From Myxococcales bacterium (GTDB lineage Bacteria > Myxococcota_A > UBA9042 > JABWCM01 > BTVJ01): a stretch of DNA of 64,000 nt. The notes below the pieces were generated by a model. The model made no database searches. It was not told the DNA's origin and worked only from the letters and a program-made list of their open reading frames with translations. A program made the translations under genes and the position numbers. The DNA lies in NCBI GenBank assembly GCA_045863395.1, contig BTVJ01000001.1, positions 66,406-130,405 on the forward strand, in the 5' to 3' direction. Shown piece after piece: positions 4,605-55,857 of the stretch; positions within the stretch are counted from its first letter, which is position 1; each line of letters begins with the position of its first letter.

Positions 4605-4638
4605 TCGCCCGCGTGACACGGGAGGCGCTGACCTCCGA

Positions 4639-5763: not shown

Positions 5764-5886
5764 GTGACCCTCCTGATCGCGACAAGGAGGCACCAGACGG
5801 CGCACGGCGTCAAGGGAACTCCGGCGCCGAGACCCGATCTGGGCGCGAGAGCACGCGTGCGGTAGCCTGGGAGTGATGGAGGCACC

Positions 5887-7322: not shown

Positions 7323-9365
7323 TCAAGGCCCCGGCGCGACGATGCTCTTGACGGAGACCCCCGCCGCATAGCCGTAGGACACGTACCGATCATACCCGTA
7401 CACCATCACGCCGATGGGCTGATCGGACACCAGGGAGTGGGCGCCGTCGCTCAGCCGGGAGCGCAGCAGCATGAAGTCTCCCTTCCCCACGGGCTGCGCG
7501 GCGCTCGTGTCCACCGTCGCGCCATCCGCGAGCAGGCTCGCCCCCGCAGGCAGGATCACGCTCACGTGGTCCTCCGCATACTTGTCGGGGGTCAGGAAGC
7601 GATAGTCCTTGCGAAACGCCGAGACAGGGGTGAGCAGCAGGAAGGAGGGGTCCCCCGTGGCGGCGTCGTAGCCGTACCCCGCAGCCTCGCACTGCTTCGG
7701 CCCCCCACAGGTCAGGAGACAATCGTGGTGGGACTTGCACTCCACGTCCGTCCCCTGGCAGACACCGGCTCCGCCCGCAGTGACGCAGGCCGAGTGGTTC
7801 GGGATCGGCGCGTCCTGGCTGGCCAGGAACTGGCCGACGACGACCGGCTTGTTCGCCACGATCTCGAACGACTGTTGGGACCCGAAGTCGAAGAGCTCCC
7901 CGCGCGCCAATGCTGGGATGCTGGCGACGGCGGGGAACGTCTCCACCGTGGTGCCGTCGTGCAGCGCCAGGATCCGCCAGTAGTCCGGCTCACCATGACG
8001 GGGAGCGCTCCTGGGAGCGATATACCGCTTGTCGTAGGCTCCGACCGGGAAGAGCTGCTCCTCCAGGTGGTCACAGCAGCAGACGGACGGGCAGTCCGCG
8101 TCGCTGCCGCATGGCAGCGAGGTCTCATCGCACTTCCCCTGGAGACACCGGGTAACCGACGGGACTGACGCACACTCGTTGCCGCCAAACACGGCGACGG
8201 GCTTGTCGGAGGTGACGGTGGCCCCCGTCAGGTCGTCGCCCATCCCAAGAGTCTGCAACGTGAGCACGTCATACTGCTCCAGCTCGAACAGGCCCTCCTT
8301 GCCGGGAGACAGACCCGTGAACTTGCGCGCCCCTCCGGCACTCCCCGTAGTCTGACACCGAGTCTCAACGAGGACCTTCGTCGTCCCCTTCTGCGTCGCG
8401 ACGATGGAGACGAACCCGCGATTCTGCTCCCCCTGGTGCTCGCGCGACATCACCAGATAGTCAGTCCCGAGCAGCGACACCGGCAGGAGCAGCGACGCGT
8501 CGTTGGAGAACACGTCCACGTTGGAGAGCGGGTTGAACTGGTACGCGATGAGCGGCATGTCGCTCTCGATACGCCACGCGAGGGGCTCAAGGGCGGAGCC
8601 ATCCACGTTCCGGGGAGGAAGATTGGCGACCTCGACCGCACCGGGCTTCACCTCCAGGGTGGTGAACTCCTCGTCCTGCGTCGAGATGCGGACCTTGGCG
8701 GGGATCGTCGCGCTGACGTTGCTCAGCACGACGGCGAAGGGGGCGTTGGCGGCGTCCTGCGTCGGGTCCGTCGGATCGAGGAAGTTGTCGAGGTCCACCG
8801 CCCAATACTCGCAGCCCACGTTCGAGGCGTCCTTGATGCTGACCGCGCACGGAGACACGCAGAGCCCGAGGTGGCAGACCGTCTTGGTGACGAGCGGATC
8901 GCAGTCACCGATGGGGACCATGCCCGACCCGTCGTCTGCACACCGCCCGACGGTGCTGTCATCGAGGCAGACCGTGGTCCCGGGGTGGCAGGAGACGCAG
9001 CCGCCGTCACGGCAGACTCCTGGCTCGCAGGACTCCTGGTAGAATCCATCTCCCTCAGCGTTGCAGATCTTCCGGACGTTCGCCTCGCAGGTCGCCATGT
9101 CCGGAAGGCAGCCGCCCTCGCAGAACCCGTCCTTGCACGACGTCCCCGCGGGGCAGGGATACTCCTTCGCAGGCTCGCCGCCCCCCTGACACAGGAGCAC
9201 GGTGTCTCCACTGCACGAGGTGGTCCCAGCGACGCAGGGCGGAGGGCCCGCGTCCACGACCGCGGGGGACGGATCGTCCGTGCTCGCGCAGCCGGCAGCA
9301 AGCAGGGCGCCGAGCACGGAGACCGCGAGGAGATGCGAAGCAAGGTCAGAGACACGCGCCGACAT
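7323..9365 (-). CDS. Secreted cysteine-rich lipoprotein with N-terminal EGF-like Cys repeats and a large C-terminal beta-rich domain.
   Basis: 680 aa. Lipobox LLAAGCAS. N-terminal third holds repeated CxxGxxxCxxGxC modules. Composition looks real. Confidence 0.7.
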   Translation of the reverse strand: MSARVSDLASHLLAVSVLGALLAAGCASTDDPSPAVVDAGPPPCVAGTTSCSGDTVLLCQGGGEPAKEYPCPAGTSCKDGFCEGGCLPDMATCEANVRKICNAEGDGFYQESCEPGVCRDGGCVSCHPGTTVCLDDSTVGRCADDGSGMVPIGDCDPLVTKTVCHLGLCVSPCAVSIKDASNVGCEYWAVDLDNFLDPTDPTQDAANAPFAVVLSNVSATIPAKVRISTQDEEFTTLEVKPGAVEVANLPPRNVDGSALEPLAWRIESDMPLIAYQFNPLSNVDVFSNDASLLLPVSLLGTDYLVMSREHQGEQNRGFVSIVATQKGTTKVLVETRCQTTGSAGGARKFTGLSPGKEGLFELEQYDVLTLQTLGMGDDLTGATVTSDKPVAVFGGNECASVPSVTRCLQGKCDETSLPCGSDADCPSVCCCDHLEEQLFPVGAYDKRYIAPRSAPRHGEPDYWRILALHDGTTVETFPAVASIPALARGELFDFGSQQSFEIVANKPVVVGQFLASQDAPIPNHSACVTAGGAGVCQGTDVECKSHHDCLLTCGGPKQCEAAGYGYDAATGDPSFLLLTPVSAFRKDYRFLTPDKYAEDHVSVILPAGASLLADGATVDTSAAQPVGKGDFMLLRSRLSDGAHSLVSDQPIGVMVYGYDRYVSYGYAAGVSVKSIVAPGP

Positions 9366-10029
9366 GGTCCTCTCCTACGAGCTTGCTGCACGTGTCACCC
9401 GGGGGGCAGCCAGGGGCACCCAGCTTGCACGCCATGCGACAGAATCCGTCCACACAGAAGGAGTCGGCGCTGCACTCATCCTGGTTCGAGCACGAGCGGC
9501 CGATGGGGGTCTCGCCCCCTACCTTGCACACGCCATCGTAAGGGGCGAACTTCTTGGGGTCGGCGAGGGCCTGACAGATGGCGCCCGTTCCACAGAGCAC
9601 GAGGCCGGTCTTGCACAAGGCGTGGCAGGTCCCAGCCGACGCCGTGGTGGCCACACATGCGGCCCCTTCGGCGCAGCGGTGCTCGGGATCGGTGCAGCCG
9701 GGCTCTCCGGGGTCGAGGACCTGCGTGCAGAGGCGATCCCCCGACTCCCACTCCACACAGACCCGCCCCCCGCTGCACGACGGGCTCCCGCCGCACACGC
9801 AGGCGGGCTGGAAGTCCAGAAGCTCGCAGGACTCGCCGAGGCCGCAGCAGGTGCCGCCGCAGAGGTCGCACGCCGGGCTCGCCGGCACATCCGCGGGCGC
9901 GACCTCTCCCGCCCCGAGCGTGTCGAGTCCACCAGTAGCTGGCGCGTCCTGGCAACCCGCTACACCCGAGAGAGCTGCCAGCGTCGCCCACCAAAGCGCC
10001 CGAATGCACGAAGTCATCGCGTGGCCCAT
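9346..10029 (-). CDS. Small secreted cysteine-rich lipoprotein.
   Basis: Start is ATG 10029 (GGGAGGG ~14 nt upstream) or ATG 10017. Signal peptide MTSCIRALWWATLAALSGVAGC. About 30 Cys. Overlaps the start of the upstream gene 7323..9365 by 20 nt, so probably co-operonic. Confidence 0.6.
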   Translation of the reverse strand: MGHAMTSCIRALWWATLAALSGVAGCQDAPATGGLDTLGAGEVAPADVPASPACDLCGGTCCGLGESCELLDFQPACVCGGSPSCSGGRVCVEWESGDRLCTQVLDPGEPGCTDPEHRCAEGAACVATTASAGTCHALCKTGLVLCGTGAICQALADPKKFAPYDGVCKVGGETPIGRSCSNQDECSADSFCVDGFCRMACKLGAPGCPPGDTCSKLVGEDHVGACL

Positions 10030-10124
10030 CCTCGGCTTGGTTCCCTCCCCGGAGACACCACCTGGAGCGACACCGGGCACGGCTCGGGGGAAACATCGCC
10101 CACGGCCGGCGAGCCGTCAATGGG

Positions 10125-13251: not shown

Positions 13252-14514
13252 TCAGGGCGCGGCGTAGGTGCCCTCGGGGTAGATCAGGTGCTTCGCCCGC
13301 TTCTGCCCGAAGGCGGTCAGCTCGTCCTGCCAGCTCGCCTCGATCTTCTTCCAGGAGCGCCCCTTCCGAAGCATGGCCAGGATGTCGTCGTTGCCCCACA
13401 CCCGCCCGAACAGCTTCTCGTTCTTGACCTCGAAGTCCTTGGGGTACATGCGCTGGATGGTCGTCAACAGCACGAGCGCCGTGCGCAGCGGGCGGAACTT
13501 TCGCGGGTCGATCAGCATGAGCTGCACCCCGTGCAGGAGCTGCCCCGTCCGCTTCCCGTACCGCGGCCTGTACGTCATGGGCCGGAAGAAGACGCCGTCG
13601 AGTCCCTCGGCGTTGAGCGCGGCCGCCAGCTTCTTCGGCTCGAAGAAGGGGGCCCCCATCAGCTCGAAGGGCTGCGAGTTGCCTCCGCCCTCGTTGATGT
13701 TGGTGCCGGCGCCGCCCACCATGCCCGTGGCCACATACATATAGGCATTGAGCGTATGGGGGATGCCGGGCGAGGTCGGCACCCACTGGAGCCCGGTATC
13801 CTCCCAGCGCATCCACCGCTGCCAGCCCTCCATCTCCACCACCGTCAGGTCGCACTTCAGGCCCATCTCTTCATTATAGAAGCGCGCCAGCTCCCCCATG
13901 GTCATGCCGTGGGTCACGGGGATGGGCGCCCACCCGATGAGGCTCTTGTACTTGGGGGCGCGAATGGCCCCCTCGAACACGAGCCCCCCGTGCGGGTTCG
14001 GGCGATCGAGCACGATGACGGGCACCTTGGCGCGCCCCGCCGCGGTCATGACCTTGCCGAGCGTCGTGATGTAGGTGTAGGTGCGAGACCCGATGTCCTG
14101 GATGTCGAAGAGCACCACGTCCACGCGCTTGAGGGCCTCGGCGCTCGGCTCGCTGCGCTTGCCGAAGAGCCCCTCGACGGGCACCCGCGTGTCCGGGTCC
14201 ACGTAGTCGCCGCCCCCATCCCCGTTCGCCAGCGCCCCCCGCAGCCCGTGCTCCGGCGCGAAGATCTGCACGAGCTTTACCCGCTTGTCGCTGGCGATGC
14301 GGTCCACCGTCGGCGTCAGCGCCCCGTCCACGCCCGAGGCGTTGGTGACGAGCCCCACCCGCTTTCCGGCCACCAGCTCGATGCGGCTGTCGAGCAGCAC
14401 GTCGATGCCGAGCTTCACCCGAGCGTGGGCCGTGGTGCCGGCGAGGACGCCACCGATGGCAACGGTGGCGAGGAGGAGGGGCAGCGCCCCAGAGCGACGA
14501 GGTGGTGTCTTCAT
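13252..14514 (-). CDS. DUF1343 family protein, NamZ/YbbC-like exo-beta-N-acetylmuramidase.
   Basis: 420 aa with a signal peptide. Conserved N-terminal block LGIDVLL..GKRVGLVTNASGV..LVQIFAPEHGLRG is characteristic of PF07075, recalled from memory. Confidence 0.75.
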   Translation of the reverse strand: MKTPPRRSGALPLLLATVAIGGVLAGTTAHARVKLGIDVLLDSRIELVAGKRVGLVTNASGVDGALTPTVDRIASDKRVKLVQIFAPEHGLRGALANGDGGGDYVDPDTRVPVEGLFGKRSEPSAEALKRVDVVLFDIQDIGSRTYTYITTLGKVMTAAGRAKVPVIVLDRPNPHGGLVFEGAIRAPKYKSLIGWAPIPVTHGMTMGELARFYNEEMGLKCDLTVVEMEGWQRWMRWEDTGLQWVPTSPGIPHTLNAYMYVATGMVGGAGTNINEGGGNSQPFELMGAPFFEPKKLAAALNAEGLDGVFFRPMTYRPRYGKRTGQLLHGVQLMLIDPRKFRPLRTALVLLTTIQRMYPKDFEVKNEKLFGRVWGNDDILAMLRKGRSWKKIEASWQDELTAFGQKRAKHLIYPEGTYAAP

Positions 14515-14573: not shown

Positions 14574-16568
14574 CTACTTGCACGCGTCCGGGCACCCATC
14601 CCCGTCGGTGTCGATGGGCGTGCCAATCAAGCACGCGAAGGCGTCGCAGAAGGCCTTGCAGCTATCGGGGCAGCCGTCGTTGTTCGTGTCGACGGCCTTG
14701 TAGCCCGGGGCGCAGTCGATGGCGAGCATGCAGTAGCACTTGTCGGGGCAGCCGTCGCCGTTGGTGTCGGTGGCCCACTGCTCCTTGGAGCAGAACAGCT
14801 CCTTGCACGCCGGCTTGCAGGCGTCGTCGCAGCCGTCGCCGTCCGAGTCGACGGGGTAGTAGCCCGGGGCGCAGTCGATGATCATGCCACACACGCAGCT
14901 CTCCAGGCAGCCGTCGCCATCCAGGTCCACGGGCAGCTTGGGCGGCTTGCAGAGCACGTTGTGGCAGGACTTCTGGCACGAGTCCGCGCAGCCGTCGCCG
15001 TTGGTGTCCACGGGGAAGTAGCCGGGCAGACAGTCGATGGCGTACTGGCACTGGCACAGGTCGTCGCAGCCGTCACCGTCCGCGTCCACGGGGACCGTCT
15101 CTTTCGAGCACTCGAGGGGCTTGCAGGCGCAACCCTCGTAGGCCTTCTTGCACGCCCCGAGATCCATGAACCCCGCGCCGCAGTCGGCCCCGGAACAAGA
15201 GCAGCCGCTCTGGCCGACGCACTCCTTGCCGTTCCAGAACCAGCCGAGGAACATGTCGCAGGCCCCGACGCCGTAGGCGTCCTGGGGCGCGCACGGGCTG
15301 ACCTTGCACTCCCCGTCGTGGGCCTTCTGGGCGCCGGCGGCGAGCCGCTCGCAGTCGTTTGGCCACGTGGTGCCCTTGCAGTCACAGACCGGCGCCCACA
15401 GCTTCGGGCAGACCTCGGGCTTCGGGACGCAGGTGCCCATGTTGTCCACGATGTCGCACGTGCCCGCCGGCATGTCGCAGAGGAGGCCCTCGGGACACAC
15501 GAACCCCGCGATGCCGCCACAGAACTGCGGCTTGCACTCGCCCTTGTAGGCGACGTTCACGCCGTTGCCCGCGGCCTCGCAACCGTTGCCGTAGGTCTTG
15601 CCGTCGCAGCCGCACACGGGGTCAAAGATCGCGATGCACGCCTCGGGGCGCGGCTGGCACTTGCCGCTGCCCTTGCAGCCATCCTTCGCGCAGTAGTCGC
15701 CCTCGGCGCAGTCCGCGTTGGACTCGCACGTGACCTCCATGCACTGCCAGGCGTCGGGCGGGATGAAGCCGCACTGCTCTTCGCAGAGGCCCAGATCGCT
15801 GCAGGTCCAGAAGTTGCCGCAGTTCATGCACTTGAGGAAGCAGCCGTTCTCGAACTCCAGGCCCGCGTCGTAGCAGTCGCAGCGCTCCTTGCAGCTCTTC
15901 TTGCAGGTGTCGTTGCAGCCGTCACCGTCCGAGTCCCAGGCGACGAAGCCAGCCGCGCACTTGATGGCGATGTCGCAGCAGGCCCCGTCGTGGTTCATGG
16001 ACACCCCGGCCGCCTTCATGTCGCACTCGTTCGAGTAGGTCTTGCCGTCGCAGCCGCACACAGGGTCCCACACGTCGGGGCAGGCCTGGGGAGGCTTGAC
16101 GCAGGTGCCCTGCATGTCGGCCCAGGAGCAGGTGCCCGGCGGATAGAGACAGAACGAGCCTCTGGGGCAGCCGACGCCAGCGATGCCGCCGCACTTGGGC
16201 ACGCACTTGCCATCGTGGTTCTTGCCGACCCCCGCCTTCAGGCGCTGGCAGTCATTGGCGTAGGTCTTGCCGTCGCAGCCGCAGACGGGCGCGCTCACGC
16301 GCGGGCACTCCGTCGGGGGCGTGACGCACTTGCCCCACCCACCCGGATTGCCGCATTGACCCGCGTGCCGCTCGCAGAGGCTCCCCTTCGGGCACTGCAG
16401 CTCCTTGGGTCCGCCGCAGAGCAGCGTCGCCTCCCCCTCCACCGTGGCGAGCTCGTTCGATCCCCCGAGCGTTCCCCGGCCGTCGCTCGGTGCGCCCACC
16501 TCGGCGCACGCGGCCAGCGCAAGCGCCGCGACAAACAGCGGCGCCCACAGCGGGTGCATCCTGATCAT
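14574..16568 (-). CDS. Secreted multi-Kazal-domain lipoprotein (putative serine-protease inhibitor) with C-terminal tandem Cys repeats.
   Basis: ATG 16568 with GGAGG 7 nt upstream. Lipobox LALAACAEV. At least five Kazal signatures: CPRVSAPVCGCDGKTYANDC, CPDVWDPVCGCDGKTYSNEC, CIAIFDPVCGCDGKTYGNGC, CPKLWAPVCDCKGTTWPNDC and others. C-terminus carries about six copies of IDCAPGYxxVDTxGDGCxDxCK. Confidence 0.8.
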   Translation of the reverse strand: MIRMHPLWAPLFVAALALAACAEVGAPSDGRGTLGGSNELATVEGEATLLCGGPKELQCPKGSLCERHAGQCGNPGGWGKCVTPPTECPRVSAPVCGCDGKTYANDCQRLKAGVGKNHDGKCVPKCGGIAGVGCPRGSFCLYPPGTCSWADMQGTCVKPPQACPDVWDPVCGCDGKTYSNECDMKAAGVSMNHDGACCDIAIKCAAGFVAWDSDGDGCNDTCKKSCKERCDCYDAGLEFENGCFLKCMNCGNFWTCSDLGLCEEQCGFIPPDAWQCMEVTCESNADCAEGDYCAKDGCKGSGKCQPRPEACIAIFDPVCGCDGKTYGNGCEAAGNGVNVAYKGECKPQFCGGIAGFVCPEGLLCDMPAGTCDIVDNMGTCVPKPEVCPKLWAPVCDCKGTTWPNDCERLAAGAQKAHDGECKVSPCAPQDAYGVGACDMFLGWFWNGKECVGQSGCSCSGADCGAGFMDLGACKKAYEGCACKPLECSKETVPVDADGDGCDDLCQCQYAIDCLPGYFPVDTNGDGCADSCQKSCHNVLCKPPKLPVDLDGDGCLESCVCGMIIDCAPGYYPVDSDGDGCDDACKPACKELFCSKEQWATDTNGDGCPDKCYCMLAIDCAPGYKAVDTNNDGCPDSCKAFCDAFACLIGTPIDTDGDGCPDACK

Positions 16569-16723
16569 GATCCTTCCTCCTTGCGATTGCGGGTCTCAGC
16601 CACCCCGTCCCTTCCGCACGCGGCTCCACCTCGTCGAGGGATCTCTCCATCACCGGGGAATTTTCGCGCGCCGATGCCACCGTACTCCCGACCGGCGCGG
16701 CGCACAACGGGGAGCCAGCCGGA

Positions 16724-18112
16724 CTACAGCGTGAACACCAAGTAGTACAGGATCTTGAGCATGACGCTGTCCGCCTGCTCGTCGTTGTGGAAGGTCGTGT
16801 AGACGAGGCGCCCCGCCCCGGGCTGGGGCTGGTGGGAGAGCACCACGGGCTGGATCAGCGTGAAGTAGTCCTTGAAGGGCGCGGGGTCCTCGAACTTCAC
16901 CGCCGCGGACACATGCACCGCGCTGCCGGGCCCCGGAGCCTCCACGGCGATGAGCGGACCCGGGCCGTACTTGGCGGTGAACGTCCCGACCCCGACGTAC
17001 TCGGACAGCTTCGGGTCGAGGATCGTGCACGGGATCGAGACGTTGGACGCCGCCTGCTGCGGTCCGTCGTTCGCCATGGGCGTCTTTGGCAGGTCCACCG
17101 AGCCGTAGAAGTCGAAGGCGTCGGGGAAGGCCGCCTCCAGGTAGGCCCACGCCAGGTCCGACGCATACAGGGAGCCCCCGCCAAGCACGAACTCCCGCAG
17201 GTTGTCCGCGATCTCCGGGTAGGAGTGCACGTACTTCAGCGGGGCGCTGCCACAGTTGAAGAACAGGACCTTGTACTGCGCCAGCAGCGCCGGGTCACGC
17301 AGCACCTGGACCGCCTCGATGTCGTCCGGGTCGACGTCGTTGAAGTACTCCCACTCGAACTCATAGTACGTGAAGTCGAACCCGAGCTGGTCGAGCAGCT
17401 CGTGCTGGTGGTCCCACTGGCCCCAGAACACCGCGATGGGTACGGCGTTGGCCTTGAAGCACTGCTTCTTGCCGACCCCCGAGAGGTCCGTCGTCTTCCC
17501 CGTCTTCACGTCGATGGTGTACTGGTTGGTGAAGGATCCCGCACTTACGTACACCTTGTGGAGGCCACAGGGCACCTCGGGGAACCAGTAGCTCCCGTCG
17601 GGCCCGGACCAGGTCTCCAAGGTTGCGGGCAGGCCGTCGCAGCCGATGACGCTGACCGTCACGTGGGCGTTCCCCACGTAGACCTGCTCACTCGGCGCGC
17701 AGATGATGCCCTTGACCGAGCCGGTGCCACAGGGAGTGCAGGACTCCGAGTGGCCGGTGTCGGGCGCTGCATCCTGCGTGTCCGCCGACGTCCCCGCGTC
17801 CAAGGCAGCGTCGTGGCTCGCTCCATCTGGTTGAGCGTCTGCCGCGGCGGCGTCAATGGTGGTGCTGCTCCCGGAGTTGGACGAGCCAGCGCCGTCGGCT
17901 GCCTCGAACCCGGGCGTGCACGGCCCGCAGTCGGCCCACCCGGAGCCGTCCTCGTTGCAGGTCTGAGTGCCCACTTGCCCGCCGGCGCAGGGACAGCTCA
18001 CCACCCTCCCCGCCTCGCAGACCGCCCCCCCGGAGTCTGCACCGGAACTGCAGCTCGCTGCCAGAAGGCCGCAGACCAGCGCTCCAAGAGCCCCATTGGA
18101 TGTCCTCCGCAT
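16724..18112 (-). CDS. Hypothetical secreted lipoprotein: Cys-rich N-terminus, carboxypeptidase-regulatory-like middle, unknown C-terminal domain.
   Basis: 462 aa. Lipobox LLAASCSSG. Middle segment HVTVSVIGCDGLPATLETWSGPDGSYWF. Confidence 0.6.
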   Translation of the reverse strand: MRRTSNGALGALVCGLLAASCSSGADSGGAVCEAGRVVSCPCAGGQVGTQTCNEDGSGWADCGPCTPGFEAADGAGSSNSGSSTTIDAAAADAQPDGASHDAALDAGTSADTQDAAPDTGHSESCTPCGTGSVKGIICAPSEQVYVGNAHVTVSVIGCDGLPATLETWSGPDGSYWFPEVPCGLHKVYVSAGSFTNQYTIDVKTGKTTDLSGVGKKQCFKANAVPIAVFWGQWDHQHELLDQLGFDFTYYEFEWEYFNDVDPDDIEAVQVLRDPALLAQYKVLFFNCGSAPLKYVHSYPEIADNLREFVLGGGSLYASDLAWAYLEAAFPDAFDFYGSVDLPKTPMANDGPQQAASNVSIPCTILDPKLSEYVGVGTFTAKYGPGPLIAVEAPGPGSAVHVSAAVKFEDPAPFKDYFTLIQPVVLSHQPQPGAGRLVYTTFHNDEQADSVMLKILYYLVFTL

Positions 18113-18245: not shown

Positions 18246-21173
18246 ATGGCCACCAGAGACCCAGAAGACCCGCACGAACCCATCGAGGCGCTGGTCGATC
18301 ACCTGGCTCACCTGCTCCCCGGCCAGGGCCCGATCTCCGTGTTCGTCCACCACAACACGCTGCACGCCTTCGAGGACCGCCCGTTCGAGCGCGCGGTCGT
18401 GGAGGCGGGCGCGCTGTTCGGCTGCGAGCCCTGGCTGACCACGGGCGCCTACCGGGATGCCATCACCGAGGGGCGAATCACCGACGCGGACCTGGAGGCC
18501 GTCCTCGACGCAGAGGCGCAAGCGGACGCCCCCGTCGGTGGCGTGACGACGCGGCGCGCCATCCGCCTGCTGGTGCTGCGCCACGGGCTCCCCGAGGCGA
18601 GCGGCCAGGACCTGCGCTGGCTGCTCAGCGAGACCGACGCTCTGAGCAGCCTGCGCGCCGACGCCCCGGCGGCGGCGCGGATACGGCTCCACGGCGATCC
18701 GCCGACGTCCGAGGCAGCGGCCGCCCAAGCGCTGTGGGACGCGTGCCTGTCTGCCGTGAGCCCTCTGGCTCCGCCGCCTTCCCCCGCTCCCGCCAGGATG
18801 CCGCGCCACAGAGACCTCCTGCTGGCCGCGACTGGGGTGGACACGGACAGCATCGTCCATCCCGTGCTGATCCGCCTCTGCGCGGCCTGGCTCGACCAGG
18901 GACTCGCCTACTGGCCCATGCCGGATCGGGACCGCGGCCTCTGGGGGAGCGTCTGCTCGGTCTACGGGGGCGCCCGCTTCGTGGAGCCCTGGCTCACGGC
19001 GGCGGCCGCCGAGCTGTCCGGCGCTGGCGAGCCTGCCGCCGTGGTCACCCGCTCCCTTGCCGATCTCGGGGTGGAGCCGGGCGAGCGGCGGGCCTTCCTG
19101 ACGCCCACCCTGCTGGCCTTGCGCGGCTTCGGGGGCATGGTCCGGCAGCTCGAGGAGCGCCCCGACCGCGCCCCCACGAACCCGCTCCCGGCTCGGGTCT
19201 TGGACCTGCTCGCGCTGCGCCTGGTGCTCGAGCGCCACGCCCTGGCGCACGTCGCGCGGGAGACGCTGGGCTTCAGCGGCCCCCTGGCGTCGCTGCGCGC
19301 CCACCTGCGCGCCCAGCTCCCGCCACCCGTGGCCCCCACGGCGCAGGAGCGCGCGTGGCTCCTGTTCCAGCTCGCCCAGCTCCTCGGCCTGCCGGCAGCG
19401 CGGGTCCAGGGCCTGAGCGCAGACGACACGGCAGCGCTCCTCGCAGAGCTGGACGCCCTGCCCTCCCTCGAGAGGCGGCGCCTGCTCCACCTGGCCTACG
19501 AACGGAGCCACGCGACCATGGTCCTCGATGGGCTCGCGGTCCACACGGCCCACCCCCCGCACCCGCCGCCACCGGCCGAGTTCCAGGTGATCGCGTGCAT
19601 CGACGACCGGGAGGAGTCCCTGCGCCGCCACCTGGAGGAGCTCGCCCCGTCCTGCGAGACCTTCGGCGTCGCAGGGTTCTTCGGGGTCGCCATGTACTTC
19701 CGCGGCGCGGCCGACGCGCGCCCTCGCCCGCTCTGCCCGATCACCGTGCGTCCGGATCACCAGATCGGCGAGGAGGTGGACGAGGGTCTCACCGTACGGG
19801 CCGGCCGCCGCGAGCGAGCCCGACGCCTGATCGGCGGCGCCGCCATCTCGCTGCGCGTGTCGAGCCGGACCCTGGCCCGAGGGTCCGTGCTGACGGCGGC
19901 CCTGGGCCTCGCGGCCGCCGTCCCGCTGGTCCTGCGCGTCCTCTTTCCGCGGCTCGTCAGCGCCGCCAACGCCGCCGTCGCGTGGGTCCTGCGCCCGGCG
20001 TCCCGCTCGCGCCTCGCGCTGGACCGGCAACCCGCCGCAGCGCCCGTCCTCGGTACCTACGTGGGCTTCACCGTCGAGGAGATGGCCGGCATGGTACGCC
20101 GCCTCCTGGAGGACATCGGCCTGACCCGCCGCCTCTCCCGCCTGGTGCTGGTCCTCGGACACGGATCGTCCAGCGTCAACAACCCCCACCTGTCCGCCTA
20201 CGAGTGCGGCGCCTGCGGAGGGAACGGTGGCGGCCCAAACGCACGAGCATTCGCACAGATGGCGAATGACGGTCGCGTTCGCGCCATGCTCTCGACGCAA
20301 GGGATCGTCATACCGCCGGAGACACACTTTCTTGGTGCGTTTCACGACACGTGTCGCGACGCCATCTCCATCTACGACGAAGAGCGCATCCCCGCGACGC
20401 ACCGGGAGGCGGTCGCCCAGGTCCATCGGGTCCTGGACCAGGCGCGGGCCCGCAACGCCCACGAGCGGTCCCGCCGCTTCGAGTCCGCCCCCTCGTGGTT
20501 CCCCCCGGGCCTGGCCCTGGCCCACGTGGAAGGGCGCGCCAGCGATCTGGCCCAACCCCGCCCCGAGTACGGGCACTCCACCAACGCGGTCGCCATCATC
20601 GGGCGCCGCGAGCGTACGCGAGCCCTGTTCCTGGACCGCCGCGCCTTCCTCGTCTCCTACGACCCGACCACGGACCCGGACCGCTCGATCCTGGCTCGCG
20701 TCCTGGCGGCGGTTGTCCCCGTGGGCGTGGGGATCAACCTGGAGTACTGGTTCAGCCGGGTGGACCCGACCGGGTACGGGTGCGGGACCAAGCTGCCGCA
20801 CAACCTGACCGGCATGGTCGGGGTCATGGACGGCCACTCCAGCGACCTGCGCACGGGCCTGACGTGGCAGATGGTGGAGATCCACGAGCCCGTGCGCCTG
20901 CTCGTCATCGTGGAGGCCCCCCCCGAGGACCTGCTGCGGGTCGTGGCCGCCAATCCGAGCATCGAGCGCCTCGTCCGCAACCGGTGGATTCGCGTGGCCA
21001 CTCTGGCGCCCGACGGGGCGCAGCTCCACGTGCTGGGCCCCCATGGTGGCTTCGAGCCCTACGCGCCGTCATCGCGCCGGCTCCCCATCGTGCCCGCGTC
21101 GGCGGACTGGTACCGCGGCCACCGAGACCACCTTCGCTGTGCCCGCACGGGCCCCCTGGAGGTGAGCCTGTGA
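18246..21173 (+). CDS. dabA: DabA-like protein (DUF2309/UPF0753), the putative carbonic-anhydrase-like subunit of a DAB inorganic-carbon pump.
   Basis: 975 aa. Conserved Zn-site-like motifs IACIDDREES (Cys-x-Asp) and HGSSSVNNPHLSAYECGACGG (His..Cys), plus the C-terminal block NLEYWFSRVDPTGYGCGTKLPHN. GGAG 7 nt upstream of the ATG. Confidence 0.85.
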   Translation: MATRDPEDPHEPIEALVDHLAHLLPGQGPISVFVHHNTLHAFEDRPFERAVVEAGALFGCEPWLTTGAYRDAITEGRITDADLEAVLDAEAQADAPVGGVTTRRAIRLLVLRHGLPEASGQDLRWLLSETDALSSLRADAPAAARIRLHGDPPTSEAAAAQALWDACLSAVSPLAPPPSPAPARMPRHRDLLLAATGVDTDSIVHPVLIRLCAAWLDQGLAYWPMPDRDRGLWGSVCSVYGGARFVEPWLTAAAAELSGAGEPAAVVTRSLADLGVEPGERRAFLTPTLLALRGFGGMVRQLEERPDRAPTNPLPARVLDLLALRLVLERHALAHVARETLGFSGPLASLRAHLRAQLPPPVAPTAQERAWLLFQLAQLLGLPAARVQGLSADDTAALLAELDALPSLERRRLLHLAYERSHATMVLDGLAVHTAHPPHPPPPAEFQVIACIDDREESLRRHLEELAPSCETFGVAGFFGVAMYFRGAADARPRPLCPITVRPDHQIGEEVDEGLTVRAGRRERARRLIGGAAISLRVSSRTLARGSVLTAALGLAAAVPLVLRVLFPRLVSAANAAVAWVLRPASRSRLALDRQPAAAPVLGTYVGFTVEEMAGMVRRLLEDIGLTRRLSRLVLVLGHGSSSVNNPHLSAYECGACGGNGGGPNARAFAQMANDGRVRAMLSTQGIVIPPETHFLGAFHDTCRDAISIYDEERIPATHREAVAQVHRVLDQARARNAHERSRRFESAPSWFPPGLALAHVEGRASDLAQPRPEYGHSTNAVAIIGRRERTRALFLDRRAFLVSYDPTTDPDRSILARVLAAVVPVGVGINLEYWFSRVDPTGYGCGTKLPHNLTGMVGVMDGHSSDLRTGLTWQMVEIHEPVRLLVIVEAPPEDLLRVVAANPSIERLVRNRWIRVATLAPDGAQLHVLGPHGGFEPYAPSSRRLPIVPASADWYRGHRDHLRCARTGPLEVSL

Positions 21174-22507
21174 GCCCGGAGCTGTTGGCGACGACCCTCG
21201 CGTTGTCGTCCGCGTTTGCCCCCGCGGCCCTCTTCGCCACCCTCGGCGTCGCGTCCCTCGCGGGGCGCCCTCTCCCCGAGGGGGTCACGGGGACGCTGGT
21301 CCGCTTCACGTTCACGCTGGCGGTCCTCTGCAACCTTGCGCTGATCGGCGTGATGGCCTCGGCGGGCCTCGACCGGCTCGTCATTCCTCTCGGCGCCTGG
21401 TTCTCGGTCGGCCACTACTCCTTCCACGTGGGCCTGCTCATCGACCGGCTCTCGGCCCCCTTCGCCTTGCTCACCGTGGTCCTCTGCGGCGTCGTCGGCT
21501 CCTTCGCGCACCGCTACCTGCACCGGGAGCCAGGCTACAACCGCTTCTTCGTCCTGCACGCGCTGTTCGCCACCGGCATGACCCTGACTGTGCTCGGGGC
21601 CTCCATCGAGACGATCTTCTTCGGCTGGGAGCTCGTGGGCCTTGCCTCCGCGCTGCTCATCGCCTTTTACCACGAGCGCCCCGAGCCGGTCCGAAACGGC
21701 CTGCGCACCCTGGCCATCTACCGCCTCACCGACATCGGCCTGCTCGGCGCCGCGGTCCTGCTGCACCACCTGGTCGGCACGGGTCAGCTCCTGCACGTCC
21801 TTGGAGACGCCCCCTGGCCACACGGCGCGACCGCCATCGACGCGGGACCGGCGACCGCCGCCGCGCTCCTGCTCATGATCGCGGCCATCGGCAAGTCCGC
21901 GCAGTTGCCGCTCTGCGGGTGGCTCCCGCGCGCCATGGAGGGGCCCACCCCGTCGAGCGCCATCTTCTATGGGGCCCTCTCCGTGCACGCCGGGGCGTAC
22001 CTGCTGCTGCGGGCGGCCCCCCTGCTCGACCGCTCGCCCGCTGCGGCCGCCGCGGTCACCGTTATCGGCGCCCTGACCGCCCTGCACGCCACCTTCGTCG
22101 GGCGCGTCCAGTCCGACGTCAAGTCGGCGCTGGCCTATGCGTCGCTCACCCAGGTGGGCGTGATCATCGCCGAGGTGGGCCTCGGGTTCCGCTGGCTCCC
22201 GGTGGCCCACGCCGTGGGCCACGCCTGCGTCCGCACGCTCCAGCTCCTGCGGGCCCCGTCGGCGCTGCACGACTTCACCACCACCGCCAACGCGGTCGGC
22301 GGAGTGGTGCCGCGGACGGGCGGCCACCTGGAGCGCCTGGTCCCGCCCTCCTGGCAGCGCCACCTCTATCGCTGGAGCCTGGAGCGCGGCCACCTGGACC
22401 CCTGGCTCGACCGCTGGGTCGTCGCGCCGGTGCTGCGCGCCCTCCGGGTCCTCGACCGCGCCGAGCGTCGCTGGACCGACCGGCTCGGGGGTGGACGTCG
22501 TGGCTGA
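21170..22507 (+). CDS. dabB: DabB-like NuoL/MnhA-family proton-translocating membrane subunit.
   Basis: GTG 21170 overlaps the dabA stop (GTGA). Polytopic. Motif LCGWLPRAMEGPTPSSAIFYGALSVHAGAYLLLR matches the NuoL/MrpA [22 protein letters not shown] signature. ORF-track entry 20351..22507 is extended upstream out of frame with dabA. Confidence 0.8.
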   Translation: MSPELLATTLALSSAFAPAALFATLGVASLAGRPLPEGVTGTLVRFTFTLAVLCNLALIGVMASAGLDRLVIPLGAWFSVGHYSFHVGLLIDRLSAPFALLTVVLCGVVGSFAHRYLHREPGYNRFFVLHALFATGMTLTVLGASIETIFFGWELVGLASALLIAFYHERPEPVRNGLRTLAIYRLTDIGLLGAAVLLHHLVGTGQLLHVLGDAPWPHGATAIDAGPATAAALLLMIAAIGKSAQLPLCGWLPRAMEGPTPSSAIFYGALSVHAGAYLLLRAAPLLDRSPAAAAAVTVIGALTALHATFVGRVQSDVKSALAYASLTQVGVIIAEVGLGFRWLPVAHAVGHACVRTLQLLRAPSALHDFTTTANAVGGVVPRTGGHLERLVPPSWQRHLYRWSLERGHLDPWLDRWVVAPVLRALRVLDRAERRWTDRLGGGRRG

Positions 22508-23924
22508 GCTCTCCTTCCCGTGGCTGACCCTCGTTGTCGCCCTCCCGACGCTGGCCTCGGCGATCACCTGGCTGCGCCTCCGCCCGGAGACGGTCCGCCG
22601 CGTCTCCCTCGCAGGTGTGGGGCTCACCCTCGGGGTCGCGATCGCCGTCGCGTGGGTCTCCGCTGGGCAGGGTCCCCTGCGGGACCCCCTGCTCGGCGCC
22701 ATCGCGGGCCGCCCCCTGCTCGGCGTGGACGAGCTGTCAGCCCTGCTCCTGCCCTTCGGCGCGCTGGTCTTCGCGCTCGTGGTGCTCGTGATGCCCCTCA
22801 CCCGGCTGGGCACCCACGAGGAGCCGCGCACACTGGCAGCCGAGGCCATCGTGCTCGCTACGTTCTGTGCCCAGGATCCCGTGGTGCTCGCCGTGCTGTG
22901 GGCCTTCGCAATCATCCCACCACTGCTCGCCCTGAGGGCGCGCGGCGAGGCGACGGCGGGGACCCTGCGTGTCTTCGCCGTCTACATGGGCGTCGCGGTG
23001 GTCACGTTCGTGGCCGGCGCCGTCCTCCTCGCAGTGGGGGGCGACGCCGCGCTGGTCGGCTCGGCGCTGGTGACCGCGGCCGTGCTGGTGCGCAAGGGCA
23101 TCGTCCCCATGCACTCCTGGCTTCCCCCCCTCATGGAGCGCGGCCCCATGAGCCTTGCGACGCTGTTCTCGGTGCCACAGCTCGGCGCCTACGCCTTCGT
23201 CCGCCTCGTGTTGCCGACCGCCCCGGACGACCTCCTCAGCATCGTCGGCGAGCTGTCCCTGCTGACCGCCGTGTATGGCGCCGCCCTGGCCCTGGTCCAG
23301 ACCGAGGCCCGGCGCGCCTTCGGGTTCCTCTTCCTGAGTGAGTCGGCGCTGGTCCTCGCGGGCCTGGAGGGCGCCTCCGAGGTCGGCCTGACCGGCGCCC
23401 TGGTCGTGTGGCTGTCCGCCGGCCTCGCGCTGACGGGCTTCGGCATGACCTTGCGTGTGTTGGAGGCGCGCCGAGGCGACCTCTCGCTGCTCCACTTCCA
23501 CGGGGGCTACCGCAGGACGCCGCTGCTCGCTGCGTGCTTCCTGCTCCTGGGCCTGGCGAGCGCCGGCTTCCCCGGCACCCTCGGCTTCATCGGCGGCGAG
23601 CTCCTCATCGACGGCGCGGTCGCCGCCCACCCCCAGGTGGGCTTCGCCGTGGTGCTCGCGGCGGCGCTGAACGGCATCACCGTCATTCGCATGTACGGCG
23701 TGCTCTTCGCGGGAGCCCGGCGCCACGCCCCGTATTCCCAGCGCCTTCGACGCCGGGAGGCCCTCGGCTTCCTCACCCTGGTCGCGTTGCTTCTGGCCGC
23801 GGGACTGGCACCACGCGCGCTGGTCTCCTCTCGAGCCCGGGCCGCCGCAGAGTCCCTGGAGTCTCGCACGTCTCGTGCCAGCGCCCCGAGCGCCGAGCTT
23901 GATCCAGATCAATCCCAGGATTGA
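22491..23924 (+). CDS. Second antiporter-like membrane subunit, NuoM/NuoN/MrpD family.
   Basis: 477 aa, polytopic. Motif IVPMHSWLPPLMERGPMSLATLFSVPQLGAYAFVRLVLP matches the NuoM/MrpD TWLPDAH-type signature. Overlaps dabB by 17 nt. Confidence 0.75.
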   Translation: MDVVAELSFPWLTLVVALPTLASAITWLRLRPETVRRVSLAGVGLTLGVAIAVAWVSAGQGPLRDPLLGAIAGRPLLGVDELSALLLPFGALVFALVVLVMPLTRLGTHEEPRTLAAEAIVLATFCAQDPVVLAVLWAFAIIPPLLALRARGEATAGTLRVFAVYMGVAVVTFVAGAVLLAVGGDAALVGSALVTAAVLVRKGIVPMHSWLPPLMERGPMSLATLFSVPQLGAYAFVRLVLPTAPDDLLSIVGELSLLTAVYGAALALVQTEARRAFGFLFLSESALVLAGLEGASEVGLTGALVVWLSAGLALTGFGMTLRVLEARRGDLSLLHFHGGYRRTPLLAACFLLLGLASAGFPGTLGFIGGELLIDGAVAAHPQVGFAVVLAAALNGITVIRMYGVLFAGARRHAPYSQRLRRREALGFLTLVALLLAAGLAPRALVSSRARAAAESLESRTSRASAPSAELDPDQSQD

Positions 23925-45815: not shown

Positions 45816-46196
45816 GCGGTTCCTCCCGTTGGTGGCCAGCCACTGGCCGTTGCAGAGCCCCTGATCGACCACCAACGGCCGCCCTGGTGCTCTGCGCCCG
45901 ACGCGACACACCAGCAAGCCGGACCCGGGACAACCCTCGCGGGACTGCCGGTCCTGGTCGTCGGGCGAACGGACGCTCAATGCCGATCCCTAGCTCTGTT
46001 CGACCCTCCCAGTCAACGCCAAACATCCACGCGGCCATCGGGGGGGGAGGACGCTGTCACCCGTCCGAGGGCATCGATGGCGCTCCGGACCGCGGCCCAA
46101 GCGCACTTCAGCGTCAGGGGAATCCGTTGAGGCCCCCCCTGGTTTGTGCTACGGTCCGCGACCCTGGGCGGGAGCAACGGAAGTGATCGAGGGTTC

Positions 46197-47483: not shown

Positions 47484-47493
47484 GTCCGCCCCA

Positions 47494-54030: not shown

Positions 54031-54190
54031 GGGTTCTCCGGGGTTCGACGGGGTCAAGCGGCCCGCGGGGGCGCCGGTCAGCGAGGGTCGGACTATATGC
54101 CAGGCCACCCCGTCGCGCCAATGTACCGTCCGGCCTGGATGATCGGCGCGGCGGGAGCTACCCTGGCGCTCGGAGCCACACGGAGGGATC

Positions 54191-55686: not shown

Positions 55687-55857
55687 CGTCGCCCAGGTGG
55701 TGAGCACCCTGCCCGGCGTGCAGACACAACGGCCTGACTTTGGGGGTTTACGGGCCGGGCGCTTTCTGATAAGTAGAGCGGGCTCGGCGCCGCTGGCGCG
55801 GAGCGGGCGAACTTTTGCCAACGATTTCATCAACTTACCCACCCGAGAGACAGGCTC

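Follow-up and report, generated by a model that had tools for sequence, protein, structure and literature searches.

A myxobacterial lipoprotein with four ten-cysteine Kazal units, a probable multi-headed protease inhibitor

The gene, its product and its neighbours

Within the window—the whole 64-kb stretch of DNA that was analysed—the list of open reading frames places a gene with an ATG start at positions 14574..16568 of the minus strand, encoding a cysteine-rich lipoprotein of 664 aa that is 100% identical to a hypothetical protein of an NCBI Myxococcales MAG (AMXMBFR64_00590). Cysteine accounts for 13.7% of its residues (91 in all: one at the lipid anchor and 90 in modules), and each module contains an even number of them, as counted from the sequence. 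With dN/dS values of 0.32-0.45 against orthologues, this is a genuine gene under purifying selection. NCBIfam gave no match for the protein, and a promoter/terminator scan returned no promoters and a single terminator-like site, fewer than in shuffled sequence.

The N-terminus carries a lipoprotein signal peptide (aa 1-21, MIRMHPLWAPLFVAALALAAC; 16506..16568, minus), which by eye divides into a basic start (M-I-R-M-H), a hydrophobic stretch (PLWAPLFVAALA) and the lipobox L-A-A-C21, of the form [LVI][ASTVI][GAS]-C that was sought after a basic region and a hydrophobic stretch. Orthologues P0002 (AAGC), P0003 (ATGC) and P0004 (AVGC) keep the cysteine that closes the signal. A flexible linker of about 29 aa (aa 22-50) follows and is the fastest-evolving segment of the protein (dN/dS 0.75). 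The first-pass annotation of the locus as a 664-aa multi-Kazal lipoprotein is thus borne out by the reading frame, the lipobox and the Kazal HMM matches described below.

That annotation also placed the gene between a NamZ-like muramidase and another secreted lipoprotein, and both neighbours are as described: downstream lies a NamZ exo-beta-N-acetylmuramidase (13252..14514, minus; Pfam NamZ_N E=2.5e-76, NamZ_C 1.1e-42), and the upstream reading frame (16724-18112, from the same list) bears a lipobox. NamZ is adjacent or near in two orthologous contigs, which come from closely related genomes; we saw no sign of a functional link between it and the Kazal lipoprotein. The upstream lipoprotein has no counterpart beside the orthologues, and a conserved three-gene unit was therefore rejected, only NamZ staying near. 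An operon link to a protease was rejected as well: no protease gene was found in the window, and around 79 related loci a two-motif test of limited sensitivity, applied out to 6 kb, detected no protease of the S8 or S1 type. The window is rich in other cysteine-rich secreted repeat proteins, and a MopE-type protein with a metal-binding motif is encoded near one related locus.

Four Kazal units with a changed cysteine pattern

The assignment to the Kazal family (PF00050/PF07648; MEROPS I1) held up well in Pfam, where Kazal_1 (73.5 bits against a cut-off of 21, E=1.3e-20) and Kazal_2 (42.8 bits against 22.8, E=5.6e-11) both score far above threshold on the whole protein. Where at least five Kazal signatures had been counted at first, we found four cores (aa 88-122, 163-197, 311-345 and 387-421), the last of them degenerate; the motif originally proposed, C-x-P-[VI]-C-G-x-D-G-K-T-Y, has no literal match in the protein, and the core actually reads P-V-C-G-C-D-G-K-T-Y-x-N-x-C.

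Searched alone, all four units still clear the Kazal_1 cut-off. Unit 1 (aa 51-122; 16203..16418, minus; 30.3 bits, E=4.3e-7) joins a five-cysteine pre-module to a core with the reactive site C88-P-R90; its P1 arginine is kept in three orthologues and P15' Asn is present. Unit 2 (aa 126-197; 15978..16193, minus; 41.5 bits, E=1.3e-10) has a CGGIAG-type pre-module and an aspartate at P1 (Asp165) that orthologues keep, and its top PDB match is the inhibitor GmSPI-2 (2m5x, E=2e-9). Unit 3 (aa 281-345; 15534..15728, minus; 30.6 bits) has an EGF/FOLN-like pre-module and a P1 residue, Ala313, that varies among orthologues (A, A, D, D). Its PDB alignments run the full length of the unit, to the follistatin FS domain (1lr7, E=2e-3, unit residues 2-68 on follistatin residues 3-74), RECK (8tzp, 5.7e-9), agrin (3.5e-4) and also FSTL1. 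Unit 4 (aa 350-421; 15306..15521, minus), with a CGGIAG-type pre-module, a degenerate core (PVCDCKGTTWPNDC) and Lys389 at P1, passes the cut-off only just (21.5 bits against 21, E=2.4e-4), and its C-P-K-L-W-A-P-V-C stretch is identical across all orthologues.

In these units C2, C3, C4 and C6 stand at canonical spacing and C5 is absent from all four. The same holds for the wider family, in which every one of 730 cores lacks C5 and 725 carry an extra cysteine at C3+2 ("CGC"). Core and pre-module together make a follistatin-like unit of ten cysteines, in which the C3+2 cysteine is, to judge from the sequence, most likely bonded to the N-terminal five-cysteine pre-module. For unit 2 the predicted pairs are C163-C182 and C171-C197 (Kazal 2-4 and 3-6), with C173 joined to a pre-module cysteine, perhaps C147, to which one variant (P0049) points. 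Classical Kazal domains have six cysteines bonded 1-5/2-4/3-6 (PMC1236909), and the first-pass annotation was prepared to give up the Kazal reading if HMM matches were absent or if the spacing disagreed with this pattern. The matches are strong and the spacing does disagree, with C5 missing and a new cysteine at C3+2. We consider the spacing rule too strict, both because of the HMM scores and because functional inhibitors that lack this bridge exist, GmSPI-2 among them (PMC4169406). The family also admits non-classical and two-disulfide Kazals (PMC4169406, PMC1236909), so the loss of C5 marks a variant and not an exclusion.

Genuine Kazal inhibitors conserve the P3 cysteine and the P15' asparagine while the other contact positions are hypervariable (PMC1236909). 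Across 718 family cores, P3 is always cysteine and P15' is asparagine in 95%, as it is in all four units here; the mean entropy is 2.56 bits at contact positions and 1.44 bits at the rest, and P1 reaches 3.11 bits. The full reactive-loop signature (P15' Asn, P4' Pro and hypervariable P1-P3') is retained in about 95% of these cores, and 45% of P1 residues in the bacterial family are acidic (D/E). Within the protein, P1 is constant among orthologues for three heads, yet differs between heads, and the reactive loops (20 codons) have a dN/dS of 0.84 against 0.40 for the remainder.

Three further module types

Two module types between and behind the Kazal units, one of ten and one of eight cysteines, had not been noticed at first. 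The 'CDCYD...GNFWTC' module (aa 226-276; 15741..15893, minus), defined by homologue alignment and belonging to no named family, occurs 47 times in 28 of the best 120 homologues, with its ten cysteines invariant throughout the alignment. It matched nothing in Pfam and no PDB sequence (best E=0.12), and it is the most constrained module of the protein (dN/dS 0.26).

The second, the 'CAPQDA' module (aa 426-480; 15129..15293, minus; about 58-59 aa, eight cysteines), is a candidate divergent Kunitz/BPTI-like domain of an unnamed family. This reading leans on an AF2 model (pLDDT 89.9, pTM 0.71) with a predicted beta-hairpin followed by a C-terminal helix; a Foldseek search of the PDB with the module, in which six of seven matches are Kunitz inhibitors (TM 0.42-0.47, E>1); the top four PDB sequence matches, all Kunitz proteins (E 0.07-0.3); and an hhalign comparison with a Kunitz profile (E=1.3e-4, probability 54%). 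Pfam Kunitz_BPTI gave no match at E<=10 for the segment and ten instances, nor at E<=0.01 for 138 family proteins. The module used alone as a query returned nothing from a word-indexed protein collection; an exhaustive HMMER search found at least 1,130 representative clusters at 50% identity, often as tandem arrays of up to ten copies in bacterial lipoproteins and in the company of Kazal, pacifastin and antistasin domains. The residue after Cys2, which corresponds to the Kunitz P1 position, is aspartate here and hypervariable in the family. We considered whether CAPQDA and Kazal domains specifically share a P1 residue spectrum. CAPQDA column 15 does resemble the Kazal P1 spectrum (JSD 0.070, against 0.130 for the next CAPQDA column), but of 496 pairs of variable columns this one ranks only fifth, and the match to Kazal P29' is just as good. 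The resemblance is therefore mostly one of acidic surface composition, and the idea was downgraded.

The remaining cysteines fall in short repeats that we call DGC units. A second family of cysteine repeats had been recognized from the outset and is real, though not as about six units of 40 aa: seven tandem units of 26-27 aa and four cysteines each, delimited by motif, fill the C-terminus (aa 482-664; 14577..15125, minus), and one more stands alone (aa 198-225; 15894..15977, minus; C-x5-C-x13-C-x3-C with a DSDGDG loop). In the array the pattern is C-x4-C-x12/13-C-x3-C at a spacing of 26/27/26/27/26/26, two subtypes alternating to give a 53-aa super-repeat; the IDCAPGY-type unit occurs in three copies there and once in isolation. 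The protein has eight D-x-[DN]-x-D-G-C motifs in total, and a C-x-[DE]-x-C stretch, with its acidic residue, lies downstream of every one. TRF found no DNA-level tandem array of the unit period, which rules out a recent repeat expansion and indicates that the duplication is old. The AF2 model of the array (pLDDT about 91) has two short strands per unit; its fold search in the PDB gave nothing significant, and a likeness to the TNF receptor was discarded (E=0.04, TM<0.2, rmsd>15 Å). In sequence, the array matched no PDB entry at E<=10 and no Pfam family above threshold. Elsewhere, DGC units also make up stand-alone lipoproteins of 140-195 aa.

Proposed function and alternatives

We think it probable that the protein is a lipid-anchored, multi-headed, canonical (Laskowski-type) serine-protease inhibitor. 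An anti-protease role had been suggested earlier for a predatory-type bacterium; a predatory lifestyle is not needed (see below), and inhibition is the function that the sequence best supports, through the P3 cysteine, the P15' asparagine, the hypervariable contact positions and the differing P1 residues. The closest solved relatives by sequence include the active inhibitors GmSPI-2, LDTI, ovomucoid and rhodniin, and related proteins shuffle Kazal modules with pacifastin and antistasin, themselves inhibitor domains. The acidic P1 residues common in the family have a precedent, since EPI1 and EPI10 of Phytophthora infestans, with P1 Asp, inhibit Asp-specific subtilases (PMC7382257).

The secreted protein would be anchored through the lipid on Cys21 and hold up to 45 disulfides, and its four Kazal heads would expose reactive loops with Arg90, Asp165, Ala313 and Lys389 at P1. 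With such different P1 residues, one molecule could block trypsin-like, elastase-/subtilisin-like and acid-specific enzymes together, the last perhaps being Asp/Glu-cleaving subtilases or glutamyl-endopeptidase-like enzymes; the Kunitz-like CAPQDA module may be a fifth head. The CDCYD module and the DGC units, whose DxDxDG loops probably bind Ca2+, might act as rigid disulfide-ladder spacers that part the heads and keep them off the membrane. Tethered to the envelope, on the periplasmic face or the cell surface, the protein would shield envelope proteins from the cell's own or competitors' proteases. On the other side, there is no 1-5 disulfide, the profile of the ten-cysteine unit finds as its best PDB match agrin, whose follistatin-like domains are not known to inhibit proteases, head 4 is degenerate, and no protease genes were found in the window or, by the two-motif test, near related loci.

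Several of these points would suit a non-inhibitory protein of the surface or matrix, a binder or scaffold with FS-like ten-cysteine units and a DGC array serving Ca2+-dependent adhesion or spacing, which we regard as unlikely though deserving of attention. The agrin match (E=1.3e-17) spans positions 6-68 and so reaches into the pre-module, unit 3 aligns over its whole length with the follistatin FS domain, FSTL1 and RECK, and ten is also the cysteine count of FS domains; to our knowledge, the FS domains of agrin, follistatin, SPARC and RECK act by binding ligands or matrix and not by blocking proteases. The lack of protease genes in the window and around the 79 related loci, together with the wealth of other cysteine-rich secreted repeat proteins in the window, fits such a role too. 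However, the reactive-loop signature persists in about 95% of the 718 cores, which argues that the loop is used, as an unused loop would give no reason for its retention; moreover, the partner domains in relatives, pacifastin and antistasin, are inhibitor families, and the core is closest by sequence to the minimal active inhibitors GmSPI-2 and LDTI.

Much less plausible is a cysteine-rich envelope protein that binds metal or calcium or buffers redox state, its likeness to Kazal domains being structural only. The high cysteine content, the eight DxDxDG loops with their downstream acidic residues and the MopE-type protein near a related locus could be read that way. Against it, an even cysteine count per module and invariant spacing are what structural disulfides, not free thiolate ligands, typically show, no metal-binding family was matched in Pfam or NCBIfam, and the hypervariable loops would go unexplained.

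Family distribution and origin

Kazal domains had first been presented as unusual in bacteria. More than 1,683 relatives of the protein turned up in the protein collection, many already named by NCBI as Kazal-domain proteins, and the complete ten-cysteine unit occurs at more than 571 loci in species genomes of the Planctomycetota, Acidobacteriota, Myxococcota, Alpha- and Betaproteobacteria and Thermodesulfobacteriota. The bacterial family is very large, automatically annotated and less exotic than it first seemed. Its carriers include cultured non-predators (Bradyrhizobium, Methylocystis, Nitrosospira), so a predatory lifestyle is unnecessary as an explanation. Sorangium is another carrier in culture. 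We found no characterised or experimentally tested bacterial Kazal protein in the literature; one seeming match was an author named Kazalov.

A recent horizontal gain from a eukaryote, suggested by the animal names of all solved relatives among the 60 matches listed, can be dismissed as highly improbable on native codon usage (GC3 0.94, as in the neighbours and typical of the genome's genes), the scatter of the family over many bacterial phyla and its own cysteine pattern, absent from all PDB alignments listed; the pattern and the spread suggest that the family has long evolved independently in bacteria.

Among bacteria of soils and sediments, secreted proteases serve as major weapons and as tools of digestion, and the proteinaceous inhibitors that we know of in bacteria are few (ecotin, SSI, serpins and chagasin-like proteins are examples). 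Here, four or five candidate inhibitor heads of different predicted specificity sit on one lipoprotein, and its family comprises thousands of proteins across phyla. If they inhibit, these proteins would supply a large and so far untapped stock of stable inhibitors rich in disulfides, some with acid-specific heads (Asp or Glu at P1), would help to account for how protease-secreting bacteria escape self-damage, and would revise the view of Kazal-type, and perhaps Kunitz-type, inhibitors as essentially eukaryotic inventions. More tentatively, we raise the possibility of a shuffled toolkit of canonical protease inhibitors in bacteria, in which a ten-cysteine Kazal variant with a re-routed disulfide, the CAPQDA domain and two more unnamed modules are combined with pacifastin and antistasin in lipoproteins. 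The 'animal' repertoire of Kazal, Kunitz-like, pacifastin and antistasin domains would then have a widespread prokaryotic counterpart, employed to protect the envelope or in protease warfare between microbes. For defining new families, the re-routed disulfide and the three unnamed modules (CAPQDA, CDCYD and DGC) offer concrete candidates.

Comparison with known systems

Closest in sequence to the bacterial core are GmSPI-2 of Galleria mellonella (2m5x/4hgu) and leech LDTI (1an1/1ldt). GmSPI-2 is nearly identical to unit 2 over 'WDPVCG.DGKTYSN.C...AGV...H.G.C' (E=2e-9), both inhibitors share the C2-x7-C3 reactive loop with the bacterial core, and the C-P-K-I loop of LDTI resembles C-P-K-L of unit 4, with lysine at P1 (C2+2) in each. 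Lacking the C1-C5 bridge of canonical Kazals, GmSPI-2 still blocks subtilisin and proteinase K (PMC4169406). Both are animal proteins that stand free as a single domain of 36-46 aa, whereas the bacterial protein sets four units in a 664-aa lipoprotein, and its core carries the extra C3+2 cysteine, most likely bonded to the five-cysteine pre-module.

The FS domains of agrin, follistatin, FSTL1, SPARC and RECK combine an EGF-like hairpin with a Kazal domain in ten cysteines, and the bacterial unit is likewise two-part with ten; the follistatin and RECK alignments span the bacterial pre-module, and Pfam FOLN matched neither the protein nor its units. FS domains, as in the follistatin sequence, retain the Kazal C5 in the helix. 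The bacterial units instead have the CGC cysteine and no C5, and the FS proteins are animal proteins that bind ligands or matrix.

Among microbial proteins, EPI1 and EPI10 are similar in being secreted and multi-Kazal, with atypical disulfides and frequent Asp at P1. Their activity against subtilases has been demonstrated (PMC1236909). EPI1a, an oomycete Kazal with two disulfides, blocks subtilisin A while lacking C3 and C6 (PMC1236909), a missing bridge that differs from the bacterial loss of C5. Unlike the bacterial protein, EPI1 and EPI10 are soluble eukaryotic effectors directed at host proteases, without pre-module, lipid anchor or other module types.

For CAPQDA, the comparison is with Kunitz/BPTI domains (PF00014, MEROPS I2; for example dendrotoxin K, calcicludine, boophilin, textilinin), which are of similar size and share in register the pattern G-x-C...aromatic-x-aromatic-[ND]...C...G-C...F...C...C. 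CAPQDA differs in its extra disulfide pair (C-x-G-x-D-C), in matching Pfam Kunitz in none of 148 sequences and in being bacterial.

The motif DxDxDG is a Ca2+ ligand set. A TSP_3 HMM gave no match to the DGC units at E<=10, and FG-GAP matched only below threshold, on the DxDxDG stretch. Unlike thrombospondin type-3 repeats, DGC units have their own C-x4-C-x12/13-C-x3-C pattern and a stand-alone lipoprotein form; in common with those repeats and other calcium-binding DxDxDG loops, they have short tandem D-x-D-x-D-G units, an acidic residue downstream and disulfides on either side.

A cysteine-rich lipoprotein with four Kazal domains

The Kazal gene starts with ATG and encodes 664 aa on the minus strand at 14574-16568, exactly where the first-pass annotation had placed it, with a GC3 of 0.94 that is on par with the rest of the genes in this 70%-GC window. 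Its product is 100% identical to AMXMBFR64_00590, a 'hypothetical protein' of a Myxococcales MAG (NCBI), and has two colinear orthologues (77% and 70% identity) in MAGs labelled Myxococcota JABWCM01; because dN/dS against these two is 0.32-0.45, we consider the gene real and maintained. The N-terminus carries a textbook lipobox (MIRMH / PLWAPLFVAALA / LAAC21), the cysteine of which is kept in all three orthologues, followed by a fast-evolving linker of ~29 residues (dN/dS 0.75). In total, the protein contains 91 cysteines (13.7% of residues)—one lipid Cys plus successive modules of 10, 10, 4, 10, 10, 10, 8, and 28—and the even number in every module fits self-contained disulfide units.

Both Pfam Kazal models matched the protein, as anticipated: Kazal_1 (E = 1.3e-20, 73.5 bits against a cut-off of 21) and Kazal_2 (E = 5.6e-11). 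The description as a multi-Kazal lipoprotein therefore stands, although by motif there are four cores rather than the "at least five" originally counted, and no further Kazal motif was found in any frame of the window. Scored alone, the cores at aa 88-122, 163-197, and 311-345 reached 30.3, 41.5, and 30.6 bits, and the degenerate fourth core at aa 387-421 (PVCDCKGTTWPNDC) reached 21.5 bits. The nearest solved structures are minimal active inhibitors, GmSPI-2 of Galleria (E = 2e-9) and LDTI of the leech; ovomucoid, follistatin, RECK, and agrin come next.

Contact residues and protease targets

In Kazal inhibitors, the contact residues P3 Cys and P15' Asn are conserved while the other ten are hypervariable (PMC1236909). 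Among 718 distinct cores of the family, P3 Cys was invariant and P15' Asn 95% conserved (the latter present in all four domains of the Kazal protein), and P4' Pro, P5' Val, and the G-C-D-G-x-T-Y scaffold were 89-99% conserved. Entropy reached ~3 bits at P1, P1', P3', P5, and P18', with a mean of 2.56 bits at contact positions versus 1.44 at non-contact positions. The P1 residues differ among the four heads—Arg90, Asp165, Ala313, and Lys389; orthologues share those of heads 1, 2, and 4, and that of head 3 varies among them (A/A/D/D). Across the family, P1 is D (27%), E (18%), A (14%), L (11%), R (8%), or K (8%); acidic P1 residues are unusual among animal Kazal inhibitors. A missing 1-5 bridge is no bar to inhibition, since GmSPI-2, with four cysteines, inhibits subtilisin and proteinase K (PMC4169406). 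Given the conserved P3 and P15', the hypervariable contacts, the differing P1 residues, and the activity of this bridge-less inhibitor, the best explanation, which we hold with moderate confidence, is that the Kazal protein acts as a multi-headed canonical inhibitor. The protease-inhibitor reading of the first-pass annotation is thus likely on the pattern of contact-residue conservation.

The gene lies on the same strand as both of its neighbours, an unrelated lipoprotein gene upstream (155-bp gap) and the exo-beta-N-acetylmuramidase gene NamZ (13252-14514, minus strand; 59-bp gap), both of which had been recognized before. NamZ is adjacent or near in both orthologous contigs, where the upstream lipoprotein gene is not kept. 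We found no peptidase genes in the 64-kb window and, by motif (S8/S1, within 6 kb), no proteases near 79 related loci, so genomic context yields no target. On the contig of orthologue P0004 (L002), a 657-aa Cu-binding_MopE-motif protein (3946-5919, minus strand) is encoded 2 kb upstream of the Kazal gene, and 6 kb downstream is a P_proprotein (proprotein-convertase P-domain) protein that may be a subtilase (16092-17998, minus strand); the latter is the sole protease-related neighbour seen at any locus.

Three unnamed companion modules

The second family of Cys repeats reported alongside the Kazal domains is real, but its length and number (about six repeats of 40 aa) were misdescribed: the units are ~27 aa long, and eight D-x-[DN]-x-D-G-C motifs occur, one at aa 212 and seven in an array at aa 495-659 (spacing 26/27/26/27/26/26 residues). 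Each DGC unit has four cysteines (C-x4-C-x12/13-C-x3-C), and two subtypes alternate, C-x-x-A-I-D-C-A-P-G-Y-x-P-V-D-T-N-G-D-G-C-x-D-x-C and C-K-x-x-x-C-x-K-E-Q-x-x-x-D-x-D-G-D-G-C-x-D-x-C. There is no DNA-level tandem repeat in the array, which is therefore old. An AF2 model of the C-terminal 243 aa (pLDDT 91) places two short strands in each unit; a PDB fold search with the array model returned nothing significant (best E = 0.04, TNF-receptor ladders, TM < 0.2), a PDB sequence search found no significant relative, and no Pfam model exceeded threshold over the units, with FG-GAP matching sub-threshold only, on the DxDxDG stretch. The DxDxDG loop is a motif associated with Ca2+ binding, and its occurrence before C-x-[DE]-x-C suggests putative Ca2+ binding by analogy. 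DGC units are present in 35 of the 120 best Kazal homologues, and elsewhere they make up small free-standing lipoproteins of 140-195 aa. These (P0121-P0136, e.g. P0122, P0123, P0125, and P0128) have 4-6 DGC units and, apart from these, just a lipobox and a linker; one of 16 has a precomputed Pfam domain (P0126, FG-GAP_3), and they look like an unnamed repeat family of their own.

Two further modules had been overlooked. The CDCYD module (aa 226-276; CDCYD...C..C.NFWTC...C...CG.IPP....C), with 10 invariant cysteines, shows the strongest constraint within the protein (dN/dS 0.26), occurs 47 times in 28 of the 120 best homologues, and has a relative in neither Pfam nor the PDB. The CAPQDA module (aa 426-480; C.PQDA.G.G.C...LG..W[DN]G..C....GC.C.G.DC..L[YF]......C......C) has 8 invariant cysteines, and in an exhaustive profile search 1,130 representative clusters passed E<=1e-3 and 504 passed <=1e-10. 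A single protein can hold as many as 10 tandem copies, and 104 of 144 Met-starting matches have a lipobox-like N-terminus (permissive pattern).

Three independent lines, each weak, suggest that CAPQDA is plausibly a Kunitz/BPTI-like domain. First, the top four PDB sequence matches (E 0.07-0.3) were calcicludine (two entries), huwentoxin-11, and dendrotoxin K, with cysteines in register. Second, hhalign against a hand-assembled Kunitz alignment, three sequences of which agree with those PDB alignments, gave E = 1.3e-4 and a probability of 54%. Third, Kunitz inhibitors—boophilin, TdPI (twice), HAI-1, ornithodorin, and textilinin—made up six of seven Foldseek PDB matches (TM 0.42-0.47, E > 1) to the AF2 model (pLDDT 89.9, pTM 0.71), which has a hairpin (residues 19-24 and 29-33) and a helix (49-55). 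Because the Pfam Kunitz model is without a match—none of 148 sequences (10 module instances and 138 family proteins) matched Pfam over the module—we term it Kunitz-like rather than a member. Named partner domains found in more than one of the 138 proteins belong to inhibitor families, bar a weak ADGRF3_N (4 proteins): Kazal is present in 21 proteins and pacifastin in 4 (E = 2.7e-23). A single protein has antistasin (E = 6e-16). The sole enzyme-associated name is one Peptidase_S74 (endosialidase chaperone) match. Antistasin or pacifastin domains also occur in some Kazal homologues.

Distribution among bacteria

Homologues of the Kazal protein number more than 1,683, a lower bound from 8,000 scored candidates, and many are already titled 'Kazal-type serine protease inhibitor domain-containing protein' by NCBI; when one genome per species was scanned, the Kazal unit was confirmed at more than 571 loci. 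Carriers among the loci listed include Phycisphaerae, Thermoanaerobaculia, Holophagales, Sorangium (complete genomes), Bradyrhizobium, Methylocystis, Roseibium, Nitrosospira, Nitrosomonas, and Ca. Electrothrix. An ORF carries between one unit (43 of 79 loci) and nine, and alphaproteobacteria such as Bradyrhizobium and Roseibium encode small secreted single-unit proteins. With such counts and so wide a spread of carriers, the family is neither rare nor predation-bound, contrary to earlier suggestions that the gene is unusual, Kazal domains being mainly eukaryotic, and linked to a predatory lifestyle (Bradyrhizobium, Methylocystis, and Nitrosospira are among the carriers). Our literature searches turned up no experimental study of a bacterial Kazal protein; the protein belongs to a large, machine-annotated, experimentally unstudied family. 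A multi-unit CGC-type Kazal protein of >600 aa (L042, CAXQPB010000046.1, match 6001-6216) is encoded on a contig assigned to the archaeon Nitrosopumilus, which reflects a misbinned contig or else a rare case in archaea.

Other features of the window

Near the Kazal gene are 'eukaryote-flavoured' extracellular domains, in an IgGFc_binding protein (7323-9365, minus strand; 680 aa, E = 3.7e-58) and the cysteine-rich ORF after it (9346-10080, minus strand; 244 aa, weak EB-module match). Two cysteine-rich secreted proteins on the minus strand carry Dicty_CTDC, the 'Dictyostelium (slime mold) repeat': one of 1190 aa (27017-30589; 9 repeats, E = 3e-67) and one of 1314 aa (42036-45980; 7 repeats, E = 3e-39), the latter also with DUF4215 and a weak cohesin match and adjoined by a 218-aa cohesin-domain protein (41351-42007). 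Divergent in orientation from the Kazal gene cluster, DabA (18246-21173, plus strand; E = 2.7e-233) and a subsequent Proton_antipo_M protein (22491-23924, plus strand) look like a DabAB-type inorganic-carbon uptake pair. A rhodanese-domain gene precedes a UvrA-like ORF (46804-52818, plus strand) of 2004 aa, with UvrA-like features in duplicate (UvrA_inter, UvrA_DNA-bind, several ABC/AAA P-loops); a normal UvrA is about half this length. Finally, a plus-strand ORF of 750 aa (55858-58110) has an N-terminal hydrophobic helix and long tandem repeats (especially 57300-57900)—~13 copies of a 24-nt unit (AAQREAEE/Q), then ~15 of a 15-nt unit (AAERQ/E)—that leave the plus strand almost T-free, with AT skew up to 1.0. 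It overlaps a called minus-strand ORF of 1094 aa (53545-56829); because the family match of the latter (UPF0093) covers the last ~150 aa only, the minus-strand gene is probably short and the 750-aa ORF real.

A shifted cysteine and a 10-Cys unit

What is new, as judged from sequence, is an apparent family-wide re-routed disulfide that would make a 10-Cys unit, along with the three unnamed companion modules. The core reads C2-x7-C3-G-C-D-G-K-T-Y-x-N-x-C4-x14-C6, lacking the canonical C5 and gaining a Cys at C3+2. Among 730 cores in the best 120 homologues (a median of 6 and at most 11 per protein), C5 is absent from all and the extra Cys present in 725; in 699 of 731 cores a Cys is found 7 residues N-terminal to C2, and C6 falls at C4+15 in 725 of 731. 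A 5-Cys pre-module stands before each core and brings every unit to 10 Cys; it is of the type CGG..G..C..G..C......C......G.C in units 1, 2, and 4 and EGF/FOLN-like in unit 3. Of the five cores without the extra Cys, four have no pre-module at all and are bare four-Cys Kazals like GmSPI-2, and the fifth is missing exactly one pre-module Cys. We infer that the extra Cys would bond to the pre-module, in place of the classical 1-5 bridge.

This two-part 10-Cys layout resembles that of follistatin-type FS domains. Agrin is the best match of the Kazal unit profile (E = 1.3e-17), with alignments extending into the pre-module, and unit 3 aligned end to end with a follistatin FS domain (E = 2e-3); the PDB relatives have a non-Cys residue under the bacterial extra Cys in every printed alignment.
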